Shown here: positions 18,487 to 21,925 of the stretch, piece after piece
How positions within the stretch are numbered: the first letter of the stretch is position 1
Layout of the letters: each line of letters starts with the position of its first letter
Assembly: GCA_045863335.1 (NCBI GenBank)
Contig: BTVY01000004.1
Span: forward strand, 96,001 to 160,000
Length of the DNA: 64,000 nucleotides
DNA from: Candidatus Hydrogenedentota bacterium
GTDB taxonomy: Bacteria > Hydrogenedentota > Hydrogenedentia > Hydrogenedentales > SLHB01
Reading direction: 5' to 3'
The notes under the pieces: generated by a model
The model's database searches: none
Seen by the model: only the letters and a program-made list of their open reading frames with translations
What the model was told of the DNA's origin: nothing
Made by a program: the position numbers and the translations under genes

Positions 18487-18527
18487 AAAAAGAAAACCGC
18501 CCCGGTGGGTTGCACACCGGGGCGGTT
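18487..18527 (-). terminator. Intrinsic terminator of the OmpA-domain gene
   Basis: 13-bp stem AACCGCCCCGGTG / CACCGGGGCGGTT followed by TTCTTTTT on the minus strand. Confidence 0.85.
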
Positions 18528-18551
18528 CGCAGGATTTCAGTTTGCTAAGGG

Positions 18552-19229
18552 TTACTCGGCGCCGAGCGTGATGTTGAACTGTGCACGGCGGTTCAGCTTC
18601 CGGTTCGCCGGACCATCGTTCGGCACGGCCGGCTGGGTTTCACCCAAGCTGACGGTCGAAACGCGTTCCGCGGCGATGCCGCTTTCCACCATGTAGTTCT
18701 TCACCGCGTCTGCGCGACGCTGACCAAGGCCCATGTTGTAGGACTCGCTGCCGAGGTCGCAGGTGTGACCTTCGATCACAACCGTGTCGCCCGGGTGAGC
18801 CTTCATCTCGTTGATCAGCTTGTCCACTTCCGCTTTGCCTTCCGGCTTCAACACGGCCTTGTCGAAATCGAACAGCACGTTGTTGAGCAGGATCTTCTGG
18901 CGCTCTACCGCCGGAGGAGGTGGAGGAGGCGGAGGTGGTGGGGGTGGCGGTGGCGGCGGCTGCACCCAGCAGTGGTACACCACGCCCCGGTTACCCCAAA
19001 GTTCCGTGTCGCCGCTGTTGGAGGCGGGCTCAGTGGGCCACCACCAATAGCACGAACGCGGAGCGTTGTCGGGGCAAATCGCCGCGCCCTGGTCGGGGTA
19101 CGGCTCGGGCGTCGCGCCCGTATTGCCCCACCAGGACATGTCGTCCCAGGTCTTGGGTCCGCAGGTAGCAGCGGTTGCGCTTCCGGCAACCAGCATGACC
19201 GCTACTACCCCAATCAGTAGTTTTTTCAT
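18552..19229 (-). CDS. OmpA-family peptidoglycan-binding protein with Trp/Cys-rich N-domain and poly-Pro linker
   Basis: Signal peptide MKKLLIGVVAVMLVAGSATA; VLFDFDKA, IEGHTC, YNMGLGQRRADAV, NRR; AAGGAG SD. Confidence 0.9.
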   Translation of the reverse strand: MKKLLIGVVAVMLVAGSATAATCGPKTWDDMSWWGNTGATPEPYPDQGAAICPDNAPRSCYWWWPTEPASNSGDTELWGNRGVVYHCWVQPPPPPPPPPPPPPPPPAVERQKILLNNVLFDFDKAVLKPEGKAEVDKLINEMKAHPGDTVVIEGHTCDLGSESYNMGLGQRRADAVKNYMVESGIAAERVSTVSLGETQPAVPNDGPANRKLNRRAQFNITLGAE

Positions 19230-19525
19230 TGTGGTCGTCTCCTTAGTTCCGCTTACTAAAATCCATGGTAGTCTACATTTAACCACAAAGGTGCATGGCT
19301 GTCAAGTTTACGAGGCCATGCACGCCAAATGCGCGCGTCGTAGGCTCCTGCATCGGGTTCACACACCCTTTACCCCGTTCGGGCGCACCCCTTGTGACAA
19401 CCTCCAGTGTAGCAGAGCCGCCCGGCGCTTACAAGTAGCCTGTAAGGACTATTACAATCCTCCCAGCGCCGTGATTCCCGTAAGGGCCGGGCCTGCTCCC
19501 ACTATCCACACTATTTACCTCGCCG

Positions 19526-19957
19526 TTATGCGGCGTAGGACGATTCATCGAACCGCGTACGCAACGTCGCCAGCGCCGAATGAATCGGGATATTGTCCCG
19601 AGTTTCAATCGCTTTCTTCAGTTTGGGAATAGCCCCGCCGACTTTCTTGCCGTTGCGGACCGTCCCAAACAGGTGCCGGCTAACGGTGGACTGCGTCAGA
19701 TTCAGCATGGCTGCAATATCTTCCTGCGTCTTGTTGCAGAAGTAGTACAGCCGAAGAATCTCGCGTTGCCGCGCCGTAAGCTTGGCATCGATGATGTCGT
19801 TGACGAAGGGCAGCACGCTGCGGAAGAAATCCTGCAACGCGTACCGCCGCTCGCGATCTTCGTCCGTTTCAAACCACAAGGCCCGCTCGGACGGAACGTT
19901 ATCCAGGTAAGCAGACTGGGTTGGAATTTCCCAGAATTCCGCATTGAACCGTGCCAT
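19526..19957 (-). CDS. sigma70 region-4 HTH protein without a recognisable region 2
   Basis: LTARQREILRLYY...TQEDIAAMLNLTQSTVSRHL; 143 aa; AAGGAG SD. Confidence 0.8.
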   Translation of the reverse strand: MARFNAEFWEIPTQSAYLDNVPSERALWFETDEDRERRYALQDFFRSVLPFVNDIIDAKLTARQREILRLYYFCNKTQEDIAAMLNLTQSTVSRHLFGTVRNGKKVGGAIPKLKKAIETRDNIPIHSALATLRTRFDESSYAA

Positions 19958-20151
19958 GATTGCACTCTCCTCTTCTACTTCGTCCCGATTGACTGTGCTC
20001 AGATGATGATTGGGATCGGTTGGCGCACATTCGTTTGCCCCAGCGGGGCACCGTAATCGCTACGGCGTCGTGATGTCGGAATTTCATTCGAGTTCTCCTT
20101 GTGGTTTGGTCTTGCGGTTCCGGCCCACCCGGCACCGCCAAAAAAGCCATG

Positions 20152-20195
20152 AAAATGAAAAGCGCCGCAGGCGTTTGGTTCTCGCCTGCGGCGCT
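20152..20195 (-). terminator. Intrinsic terminator in the leader of the sigma-region-4 gene (possibly bidirectional)
   Basis: Perfect 13-bp stem AGCGCCGCAGGCG / CGCCTGCGGCGCT followed by TTTCATTTT on minus; T-rich on plus too. Confidence 0.8.
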
Positions 20196-20245
20196 CAGTT
20201 TGTTTTGAGCTTTTTCTCTAAGGGGCTACTTCGATATCAGCACCT

Positions 20246-20391
20246 CGAGACGAGAACCGCAGGCGGGTACTCGGGCCACACCACGGATAAACGTGGACAT
20301 GGTGCACCACACCGCCTTCGCCTTATTGACGGCGTGTTGCGCGTCGGCGTAATGGAGTGTGTTGACCATGTTCCGTTTCTTTCTCGTCTCG
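20246..20391 (-). ncRNA. Structured RNA (three-way junction), riboswitch/attenuator-like
   Basis: 11-bp closing stem CGAGACGAGAA / TTCTCGTCTCG; long stem AAACGGAACATGGT / ACCATGTCCACGTTT; third stem CCGTGG...CTGCGG with G-U pairs favouring the minus strand. Confidence 0.5.
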
Positions 20392-20439
20392 TTACGGTTC
20401 GTTAAGTTCTGTCCGAATCTCTCACACGAATGAAGCGCT

Positions 20440-20468
20440 ATTAAAGCATAACGCTCCGGAGAGTGCAA
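20440..20468 (-). promoter_or_regulatory. sigma70 promoter for the structured leader
   Basis: TTGCAC-17 nt-TTTAAT with extended TG. Confidence 0.5.
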
Positions 20469-20595
20469 GCCCTTTCTTTGGTTCACTTTCAATCGGCTTC
20501 GGAATTGGTGAAACCTGGAGAAAGATCAGAGAAAGAAAAAGTGCTCCTCTCACCCATATCCACCGATATGCATACTTTTTTGCGGGACCATTTTC

Positions 20596-20651
20596 TGTAC
20601 ATTTTTGTACGGCAGACAGGTGTTATACCCATGATTGTACAAAATTGTACG
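20596..20651. promoter_or_regulatory. Two putative sigma54-activator binding sites
   Basis: TGTACATTTTTGTACG (20596-20611) and TGTACAAAATTGTACG (20636-20651), 40 bp apart, centred about -142 and -102 from the predicted start site. Confidence 0.6.
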
Positions 20652-20718
20652 AAGCGTTTTGTCGATCTGACAAATGTAAAGAGTTTACTGGTAGTGACTT
20701 GACAAATTCTTGACACCT

Positions 20719-20734
20719 TGGCACCGCTCTTGCA
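20719..20734 (+). promoter_or_regulatory. sigma54 promoter
   Basis: TGGCACCGCTCTTGCA, near-perfect TGGCAC-N5-TTGCA. Confidence 0.8.
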
Positions 20735-20824
20735 ACAGAACCCGCGGACTTGTAACGCAGGGGGTATGACAAGATGGGACTGGTAACGGCTGCAGAACCG
20801 ACTGTGCTGGGGATGGGTAACGAA

Positions 20825-21925
20825 ATGGGACTGACTTCCAAGCAGGCAATCCGGGGGAGAATTCTGATCGTCGATGACGAAAATGGACCGCGTCAGGCGT
20901 TGCGCATGCTTCTCAAAGAGGAGCACGACGTGTTTCTCGCCGAGGACGTCGCCAAGGCGCAGGCCCTGCTCCGGTCCGAGACCATCGATCTGGTCATCAC
21001 CGACCTCCGCATGCCCAAGCAATCGGGCGTCGAATTACTCCGTTGGACGAAGACCCAGTATCCGGAAACCGAGGTGATTATTCTCACGGGGTTCGGCGAA
21101 CTCGATTCAGCCATGAACGCCGTCGAATACGGGGCGCTGGCCTACATCGTCAAACCCTTCGACACGAAGGTCATGCTTCGTCACGTGGAGGAAGGCCTGA
21201 GCAAGCGCGTCAAGGAACTGGAACGCCGCCGGATGGAAGAGTTGGCCATGGAAGCCAATCGCTTCGAAACCCTCGGCCGTTTCGTCTCGGGCATGCTGCA
21301 CGACCTGGGAACGCCTCTGGCTGTTATCACGGGTCAATTGGAGATGATTCTCAACCGCCCGCAAATTTCCCCGACACCGGACCGGTTGCAGATGATGCAT
21401 AGCCAGATTGGGTTGTGTACGGACATCGTCCGGTCGGCTATGAACTTTCTACGCCATGAGACGCAGCGTTTCGCGATTCTCAACATCAATGACGTAGCTG
21501 AAACGTGCCTGAACGTGAGCATGCCGTTGATGCAGAAGATGGCCGTGAAAGTGAAGCGGGAACTCGAGCAGCAAGTGCCATTGTGTGAAGGCGACTTCGT
21601 TCTCATGCGCCAGGCCGTACTCAATCTCATCACCAATGCCTGCCAGGCCATGGACGGTCAGGCGCCTCCGCGGGAGATTCGCGTTCGCACTTGGCGGGAA
21701 CCGGACTACGTATGCATTTCCGTCAGCGATACCGGACCCGGAATTCCGGAAGAGAACCGGGCCAAGATCTTCGATACGTTTTACTCCACCAAGGGTAAGA
21801 ACGGAACGGGCCTGGGACTGGCCGCGGTCAAAAACATCATGCGCCGTCATAACGGCGAGGTTCATGTTGATGTGAACGAATGGAACGGCGCTGACTTCAC
21901 CCTGAAGTTCCCGATTCTAAAATGA
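20825..21925 (+). CDS. Soluble receiver + histidine kinase protein
   Basis: ILIVDDE, DLRMP, KPF; H-box LHDLGTPL; NLITNA, DTGPGI, FYSTK, GTGLGL; start could be 20813. Confidence 0.9.
   Translation: MGLTSKQAIRGRILIVDDENGPRQALRMLLKEEHDVFLAEDVAKAQALLRSETIDLVITDLRMPKQSGVELLRWTKTQYPETEVIILTGFGELDSAMNAVEYGALAYIVKPFDTKVMLRHVEEGLSKRVKELERRRMEELAMEANRFETLGRFVSGMLHDLGTPLAVITGQLEMILNRPQISPTPDRLQMMHSQIGLCTDIVRSAMNFLRHETQRFAILNINDVAETCLNVSMPLMQKMAVKVKRELEQQVPLCEGDFVLMRQAVLNLITNACQAMDGQAPPREIRVRTWREPDYVCISVSDTGPGIPEENRAKIFDTFYSTKGKNGTGLGLAAVKNIMRRHNGEVHVDVNEWNGADFTLKFPILK

Follow-up and report, generated by a model that had tools for sequence, protein, structure and literature searches.

Introduction

What kind of RNA precedes the gene of a small, conserved DNA-binding-type regulator in an uncultured bacterial phylum, and by what logic could that RNA decide whether the gene is transcribed? 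We addressed this question in a stretch of 64,000 nucleotides (nt) from a Candidatus Hydrogenedentota bacterium (contig BTVY01000004.1 of assembly GCA_045863335.1, positions 96,001 to 160,000; hereafter the window, in whose coordinates all positions are given). On its minus strand, the gene of a 143-amino-acid protein with sigma region 4 only (19957–19526) is preceded by a leader that the initial annotation, made from the letters alone, had described as an unrecognised riboswitch-like element with a terminator/antiterminator switch. We show here that the leader contains alternative helices whose strands match best within their own locus. On balance, the comparison of sequences favours a ribosome-dependent (leader-peptide) transcription attenuator, its logic being closest to that of the upstream open reading frame (uORF) leader of whiB7.

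Results

Three mutually exclusive helices precede the gene

From 5' to 3' on the minus strand, the leader consists of a proximal promoter, the 5' strand of a closing stem, P1 (CGAGACGAGAA), a leader open reading frame (sORF1), the strand S2 (CGGTTCTCGTCTCGAGGTGCTG), an A/C-rich linker of 30 nt, the terminator hairpin and a second short open reading frame (sORF2), followed by the 143-amino-acid gene. Three helices that exclude one another can be drawn in this RNA: P1, an antiterminator and an intrinsic terminator. P1 pairs 20391–20381 (segment 1, the anti-antiterminator, which precedes the sORF1 ATG by 12 nt) with 20256–20246 (TTCTCGTCTCG), the latter lying within S2 (segment 2, 20259–20238). 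S2 is the hub strand of the switch: its 5' half pairs with segment 1, the whole of it pairs with the 5' arm and loop of the terminator, and its 3' half resembles a Shine-Dalgarno sequence (GAGGTG, 20246–20241). The terminator (20196–20151) has a GC-rich stem of 13–14 bp (5' arm 20195–20183, loop 20182–20174, 3' arm 20173–20161) followed by a U-tract (20160–20151), with a hairpin energy of -29.2 kcal/mol.

Direct reading of the sequence and minimum free energy (MFE) folding both agree with the positions that the initial annotation had given for the promoter, the 11-bp closing stem and the terminator. The complementarity that it had noted between the 3' strand of the junction and the terminator arm and loop is longer than originally described, with 20259–20238 pairing with 20195–20176 at -30.5 kcal/mol (duplexfold). 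The 291-nt leader folds with an MFE of -112.7 kcal/mol (z = -5.73; none of 200 shuffled sequences folds as well), and both P1 and the terminator are present in this fold. In a thermodynamic model of the window RNA in the absence of a ribosome, P1 and the terminator form; when the start region is blocked and the RNA is cut before the 3' arm of the terminator, the antiterminator forms instead.

Switch strands change together within loci

To compare the leader among related bacteria we fetched 72 loci and kept the 68 in which the upstream sequence is long enough and a terminator can be recognised. Those left out were L028 and L065, with short upstream sequence, L067 (genome G030), with neither a terminator nor a model match, and L081, a homologue of 44.7% identity that lacks a convincing hairpin; the terminator could thus be located in 68 of the 70 loci with enough upstream sequence. 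Nine near-duplicates were removed from the 68 before permutation tests, leaving 59 representatives.

The terminator stem core (CGCCGCAGG / CCTGCGGCG) hardly varies within the order, and the stem pattern is unique within the window's own genome. Across the 59 sequences 93.9% of the terminator helix is paired, with double-sided changes in 8 of 12 pairs. An antiterminator duplex of -18 kcal/mol or better is found in 58 of 68 loci. The part of S2 that faces the distal arm and loop varies by lineage, and both sides of the helix change together, as in the S2/terminator combinations GGTTCTCG/CGAGAACC, GGGATTCAG/CTGAATCCC, CCTTAAGC/GCTTAAGG and TTTGGGTCCG/CGGACCCAAA.

We then paired every S2 window with every terminator among the 59 representatives. 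The antiterminator is markedly more stable when both strands come from the same locus (mean -23.96 kcal/mol) than when they come from different loci (-20.10 kcal/mol; a difference of -3.86, with none of 10,000 permutations as low), while two neighbouring control windows show no effect (differences of +0.28 and -0.17). On fixed MAFFT alignment columns 60.1% of antiterminator cells pair, against 38.6–44.8% with slid partners, and the covariation score is 0.154 as compared to 0.116 in shuffles (0 of 500 as high); the signal is weaker in this format because bulges shift the register. P1 behaves similarly, its within-locus signal being weaker than that of the antiterminator: the means are -18.55 kcal/mol within and -16.51 kcal/mol between loci (difference -2.05; 0 of 5,000 permutations as low), with control differences of -0.21 and -0.81.

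Although the 5' strand of P1 shifts among lineages, it remains located at the leader frame's ribosome-binding site or start codon (e.g. ACAGGACGTGAACC and GGCGAACGATG): in many lineages it overlaps or abuts the start codon, and in some it covers the start codon itself. Of the three-way junction proposed earlier, the closing stem is preserved; a conserved aptamer junction was not confirmed, the interior folds differing among lineages. The mutual exclusion of junction and antiterminator does hold, the two being alternative pairings of S2 that fit better within than between loci. Taken together, the data support a terminator/antiterminator switch that acts in cis and has the closing stem as its sequestering element.

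The leader is conserved together with its gene

The initial annotation had suggested examining the upstream regions of homologues, and this comparison showed both the above-shuffle covariation of the antiterminator and conservation of the element with the gene. A DNA search of 41 relatives recovered the leader in three other members of the genus and the terminator part only in five more distant genomes; the 143-amino-acid gene lies approximately 200 nt downstream of the element in all nine true matches. The match in L007 was rejected as false, as it lies inside an open reading frame. A covariance model, R1, for which 45 of the 59 representatives were used and which extends from S2 to the terminator inclusive, gave 74 matches at E <= 1.1e-6 in 73 of the 135 genomes of the phylum, one per genome and beside the gene with two exceptions. 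One leader match is located on a different contig from its gene because that gene sits at a contig end. The extra match in genome G014 is not a second leader copy: it is the terminator of an OmpA-family gene, the stem of which resembles the leader terminator.

Related loci are assigned to Candidatus Hydrogenedentota, Hydrogenedentes, Hydrogenedentales or Hydrogenedens in 53 of 80 cases. No leader was found upstream of genes with 37–47% identity in L158–L161 (metagenome-assembled genomes of Phycisphaerae, Planctomycetaceae and Eisenbacteria), and the weak homologues of families f11, f13, f14 and f15 likewise lack one; the distribution of the protein family thus exceeds that of the leader. The L158–L161 homologues with 37–41% identity retain the N-terminal motif MAKFNPDFWE and directly follow another long open reading frame. 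One further locus, L155, is labelled as a Bathyarchaeia archaeon and has the complete bacterial leader architecture together with a gene of 47% identity; this contig is probably mis-binned.

A reading frame is kept open between the switch strands

In the window, sORF1 (20369–20226), which the initial annotation had not noted, starts with an ATG at 20369 and comprises 47 codons and a TAG stop (20228–20226, 10 nt past S2), with a conserved Trp codon at 20309–20307. In general the leader frame starts at or beside the 5' strand of P1, spans segment 1 through segment 2 with a length of 35–50 codons, and stops in the antiterminator loop.

We used several measures to establish whether this arrangement exceeds expectation. 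Of 97 ATG or GTG codons at segment 1, 73 open a frame whose stop lies in the antiterminator loop, as compared to 44% of pseudo-starts. A qualifying frame is present in 45 of the 59 loci, whereas dinucleotide shuffling of the interior yields a mean of 26.9 (standard deviation 3.1) and none of 300 shuffles reaches 45. In 42 of 44 loci the frame contains a Trp codon, as opposed to 30 and 23 loci for the shifted frames; its commonest position is 27 codons ahead of the stop. Finally, the frame can be defined independently by a terminal Shine-Dalgarno sequence, a start codon, zero to two codons and a stop, a combination present in 28 of 68 loci. The frame so defined is open for at least 30 codons upstream in 27 of these 28, while the other two frames are open in 6 and 17. 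The open state of the leader frame is therefore under selection. The terminal mini-frame is itself no universal feature, being canonical in these 28 loci only and out of frame with the long one in L025 and L050. We dropped a frame test anchored on the longest open reading frame, in which the RYGTGG/ACRTGG motifs fell 24, 4 and 12 times by frame; it is too noisy because two or three frames are often open.

sORF2 overlaps the start of the regulator gene

Downstream of the terminator, sORF2 (20100–19899, minus strand, including its Shine-Dalgarno sequence AAGGAG at 20100–20095) starts with an ATG at 20087, has 62 codons and extends 58 nt into the main gene, which is read in another frame. A Shine-Dalgarno sequence (mostly AAGGAG) with an ATG follows the terminator in 63 of 68 loci, at a distance of 33–183 nt and typically 40–110 nt. 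Relative to the main ATG, the frame keeps one and the same offset in 61 of these 63 loci, and in 61 of 63 it reaches or passes this ATG. Its peptide shows no conservation of sequence. With an attenuator and an overlapping sORF2, the gene would thus be guarded twice.

The leader matches no Rfam family

The Rfam 15 models gave no match at gathering thresholds in the window. When the search was relaxed to E <= 10 for 19900–20700, it returned six rows at chance level, the best of which reaches 18.6 bits against a threshold of 93 bits. This agrees with the earlier impression that the T-box, SAM-I, TPP, cobalamin, FMN and c-di-GMP consensus sequences are absent, and a T-box identity was rejected for want of an Rfam match. 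The leader is not 6S RNA either: the genome's RF00013 match (57 bits, above the cut-off) lies on another contig (G000:C46:60020–60205). We found no description of such a leader in the literature on Hydrogenedentes/Hydrogenedentota or Planctomycetes, a survey which did not extend to paper supplements; from one paper (PMC4833913) only general leader-gene statistics could be drawn. The leader family is undescribed; the type of control is familiar.

The regulated protein contains sigma region 4 only

The assignment of the downstream product as a protein with sigma region 4 only is borne out by Pfam, NCBIfam and Foldseek. Pfam Sigma70_r4 matches residues 58–98 (6.7e-13), and NCBIfam sigma models, including TIGR02937, match in the C-terminal part only. 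An AlphaFold2 model calculated from an alignment of 27 orthologues (mean predicted local distance difference test score 79.9) aligns best with isolated sigma-4 domains in Foldseek, with weak E-values (0.08–0.3) and probabilities near 1. Judged by the combination of sigma-70 regions 2 and 4, of which region 4 alone matches, the protein is therefore sigma-4-like rather than a sigma factor. Its 423 database relatives carry no consistent name. Within the order it is present in 86 of 133 genomes, nearly always as a single copy, with 55–99% identity for full-length matches.

Two neighbours frame the locus. The gene immediately downstream of the regulator, on the minus strand (18552–19286), encodes an OmpA-family protein that contains approximately 17 consecutive prolines. 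A divergent gene on the plus strand (20774–21925) encodes a hybrid protein with a receiver and a HisKA/HATPase_c histidine kinase; its upstream intergenic region is the one in which the palindromic boxes described below are located.

Promoters, upstream boxes and RNA contigs

The proximal promoter predicted from the sequence (20440–20468, minus strand) has TTGCAC at 20468–20463, a spacer of 17 nt and the extended -10 element TGc-TTTAAT at 20448–20440. Its hexamers are kept in all four aligned genus members. A consensus scan of the window did not list it because its -10 element has no A at position 2. In a separate scan, 19 of 68 loci proved to have sigma-70-like pairs with a score of 9 of 12 or more. 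Further upstream, a sigma-70-like distal promoter candidate (20644–20673, minus strand) combines TTGTCA, a spacer of 18 nt and TACAAT, with 10 of 12 consensus matches.

Two palindromic boxes of the form GTAC-N6-GTAC are located on the minus strand in this region, box 1 at 20637–20650 (GTACAATTTTGTAC), overlapping the -10 element of the distal candidate, and box 2 at 20597–20610 (GTACAAAAATGTAC). The boxes are 40 bp apart and have A/T-rich spacers. The 6.75-Mb genome contains three such palindromes, two of them at this locus and the third inside a long open reading frame on another contig, which speaks against a regulon; strict boxes are present upstream in 11 of 57 loci. The boxes are likely an operator. 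A conserved motif, AAAGTATGCATA (consensus AAAAGTRYGCATA), at 20567–20578 on the minus strand, is present in 57 loci among those scanned, at a variable distance of approximately 55–135 nt upstream of the proximal promoter. As a regulon operator the upstream motif AAAGTRYGCATA was rejected, the genome holding two copies of AAAGTATGCATA as compared to one of a reversed control pattern. Inspection by eye for a sigma-54 promoter, a -10 element or a mini-frame in this motif gave none that is consistent across loci. The motif may be a binding site of the helix-turn-helix (HTH) protein. That boxes and motif are essentially confined to this locus would suggest promoter-level control, possibly autoregulation.

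Assembled RNA-library contigs (Logan) cover parts of the locus: 20223–20502 and 19612–20130 in library X2, 20206–20385 and 19460–20132 in X4, and 18500–20201 and 20339–21000 in X1. No contig of these three libraries bridges the terminator, an observation limited by the fact that these are contigs only, that the libraries may contain DNA and that uncovered stretches prove nothing. Public RNA data in the form of contigs cannot therefore show transcript ends or expression levels, and the pattern at most weakly hints that transcripts are discontinuous at the terminator and that a start lies upstream of 20502. The proximal promoter is present as first described; its role as the only start is less secure, since the RNA contig of a relative extends to 20502, upstream of the proximal -35 element. 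The distal candidate would account for this extension. With such a contig and a distal promoter-like site overlapping a GTAC box, the true 5' end is uncertain.

Discussion

How the leader may read translation

The reading that we favour, with a confidence somewhat better than even, is that of a leader-peptide attenuator. Translation of sORF1, the direction of the response and its signal we infer from the arrangement of the parts. S2 would pair either with the strand at the ribosome-binding site and start of the ~47-codon leader frame, forming P1, or with the 5' arm and loop of the terminator. With no ribosome on the leader frame, P1 would hold S2, the terminator would form, and transcription would stop approximately 200 nt ahead of the gene. 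A ribosome positioned at the start of sORF1, or one lagging within it as the 5' arm of the terminator emerges, would prevent P1; S2 could then capture the 5' arm, and RNA polymerase would read through into sORF2 and the sigma-4-like gene. A ribosome keeping pace would reach the stop codon 10 nt past S2 and cover the Shine-Dalgarno-like half of S2, so that termination would be favoured. By these proposed steps the switch would report slowed or stalled translation, with a particular aminoacyl-tRNA, general translation stress or an arrest peptide as candidate signals.

A more far-reaching version holds that the switch reads ribosome binding as such. In this version a 30S subunit or a terminating 70S ribosome would clamp the Shine-Dalgarno sequence of S2, which is followed by a start codon 5–10 nt later and a near-immediate stop, through the anti-Shine-Dalgarno sequence, and so decide termination. 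This 'ribosome-availability riboswitch' and the sORF2 gate would make a phylum-wide sigma-4 mimic the master regulator of translation stress. We consider this extension rather unlikely.

Several observations weigh against the leader-peptide attenuator. No excess of substitutions is seen at third codon positions (98, 100 and 116 at positions 1, 2 and 3 in 16 close pairs), and the peptide sequence of sORF1 is therefore not under protein-like selection. In the window no strong Shine-Dalgarno sequence precedes sORF1. No amino acid is strongly enriched (Ala 13.1%, Arg 12.1%, Val 10.1%, with similar values in shifted frames), and of classical regulatory codons there is only the one positionally conserved Trp codon. 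Fourteen of the 59 loci have no qualifying frame under the rule used. The conserved motif GGTTCYCG...GRGG is read in different frames in different lineages, which points to a constraint on the RNA and not on the peptide. The even spread of substitutions, the lack of an enriched residue and the changing frame of this motif also argue against sORF1 being a conventional coding gene. Full-length RNA at equilibrium favours the terminator in every modelled state, so that read-through would have to be kinetic. Finally, the loci are related, and the permutation p-values thus overstate their independence. The lack of regulatory codons lowers the case for an amino-acid attenuator of the trp type, but not that for a stall-sensing one; a frame kept open with a largely free peptide is what would be expected of a regulatory leader frame.

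Alternative explanations

The initial annotation's cis-regulatory leader survives as a switch that is new to Rfam; its proposals of a riboswitch or a stand-alone non-coding RNA fit the loci less well. For a riboswitch-like or protein-bound leader, a small molecule or the downstream HTH protein would stabilise the P1-closed fold and thereby select the terminator, and the open frame would be tolerated but not needed. The order of P1, antiterminator and terminator follows the logic of transcriptional OFF riboswitches exactly; the bias among codon positions that a peptide would leave is absent; short interior motifs, GTGGC and CGAAT, recur; and an RNA of this kind would be new, given the missing Rfam match. 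Although the interior tends to be structured, with a negative z in 15 of 20 loci, its length and fold vary and z ranges from +1.35 to -4.28 across the same 20 loci. The alignment of 59 sequences is invariant only at G189, C190 and G216, none of which lies outside S2 and the terminator, and the mean column identity is 27%. In-frame stops are depleted in the interior, and start and stop codons are located at the two switch strands. There is also no candidate ligand context, because the regulated gene encodes a regulator and not an enzyme or transporter. We regard this explanation as doubtful. A conserved frame across the switch strands, the near-absence of invariant interior nucleotides and the presence of sORF2 are together better accommodated by the leader-peptide attenuator.

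The locus might also be composed of two separate units, a small gene or small RNA of approximately 280 nt that ends at its own terminator and an independently transcribed sORF2/sigma-4 gene, with the pairing of S2 and terminator serving stability or a function in trans. The short transcript would be stable and structured, as its folding z-score (given above) indicates, sORF2 has a strong Shine-Dalgarno sequence of its own, and trans-acting small RNAs and leader peptides derived from attenuators are known, rnTrpL/peTrpL among them. However, a 20-nt strand that competes for the entire 5' arm of the terminator and co-varies with it locus by locus is hard to explain unless it acts as an antiterminator; no conserved promoter was seen between terminator and sORF2; and order, spacing and linkage are maintained in 73 genomes. 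We therefore hold two units to be improbable, more so than a riboswitch. That the fold arose by chance in an intergenic region has next to no probability. GC-rich sequence does fold readily and long open frames are common (all three frames are open for at least 30 codons in 15 of 59 loci), but conservation, the specificity of pairing within loci and the single-copy linkage to one gene in 73 genomes refute this explanation.

Relation to known leaders

In the attenuators of amino-acid operons (the trpL, hisL and leuL type), helices 1:2, 2:3 and 3:4 are chosen by translation of a leader reading frame. The present leader resembles them in having three alternative helices and a leader frame, and termination is also expected there if the leader is untranslated, according to the discussion section of PMC10274678. 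It differs in having no run of regulatory codons but one conserved Trp, a long frame with its stop inside the antiterminator loop, and a regulator instead of a biosynthetic operon as its target. Transcriptional OFF riboswitches share with it a closing stem that sequesters the antiterminator strand, the terminator being the default when P1 is closed; they differ in that here no conserved aptamer core and no Rfam match is found and a reading frame fills the 'aptamer'. The leaders of vmlR, bmrCD and erm are antibiotic- or stall-sensing leader frames with attenuators. As in such leaders and in start-stop mini-frames, the position of a ribosome on a short frame would select terminator or antiterminator; unlike there, what is regulated here is no resistance gene, and nothing ties this leader to antibiotics.

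The closest parallel is the whiB7 leader of Actinobacteria. As described in the relevant sections of PMC10274678, a uORF, an antiterminator and a rho-independent terminator precede a regulator linked to sigma region 4; species differ in the length and sequence of the uORF, whereas conservation of the regulator is high; and stalled translation of the uORF leads to read-through, with the regulator feeding back on its own promoter. As we read the present leader, both systems place a conserved sigma-4-linked regulator behind a variable uORF and an attenuator. They have no sequence or structural homology and belong to different phyla, and the regulated protein here is a sigma-4-like HTH protein and not a WhiB Fe-S protein. 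The Hydrogenedentota leader is also not enriched in Ala codons, and it has a second, overlapping uORF and a Shine-Dalgarno-like antiterminator strand. Compared with the feedback of whiB7, autoregulation is here only suggested, by the unique upstream palindromes.

Significance

The leader constitutes a delimited family of cis-regulatory RNA that co-varies within loci, lies outside Rfam and comes from a phylum without a cultured model, and it precedes one of the most conserved small regulators of this lineage. With three helices, two uORFs and the unique palindromes upstream, the region is small enough for study by coupled transcription-translation in a heterologous system. If the leader-peptide attenuator is the correct reading, it would represent a second, independent invention of a whiB7-style uORF stall sensor over a regulator linked to sigma region 4, and the locus offers an entry point to the stress physiology of the Hydrogenedentota.

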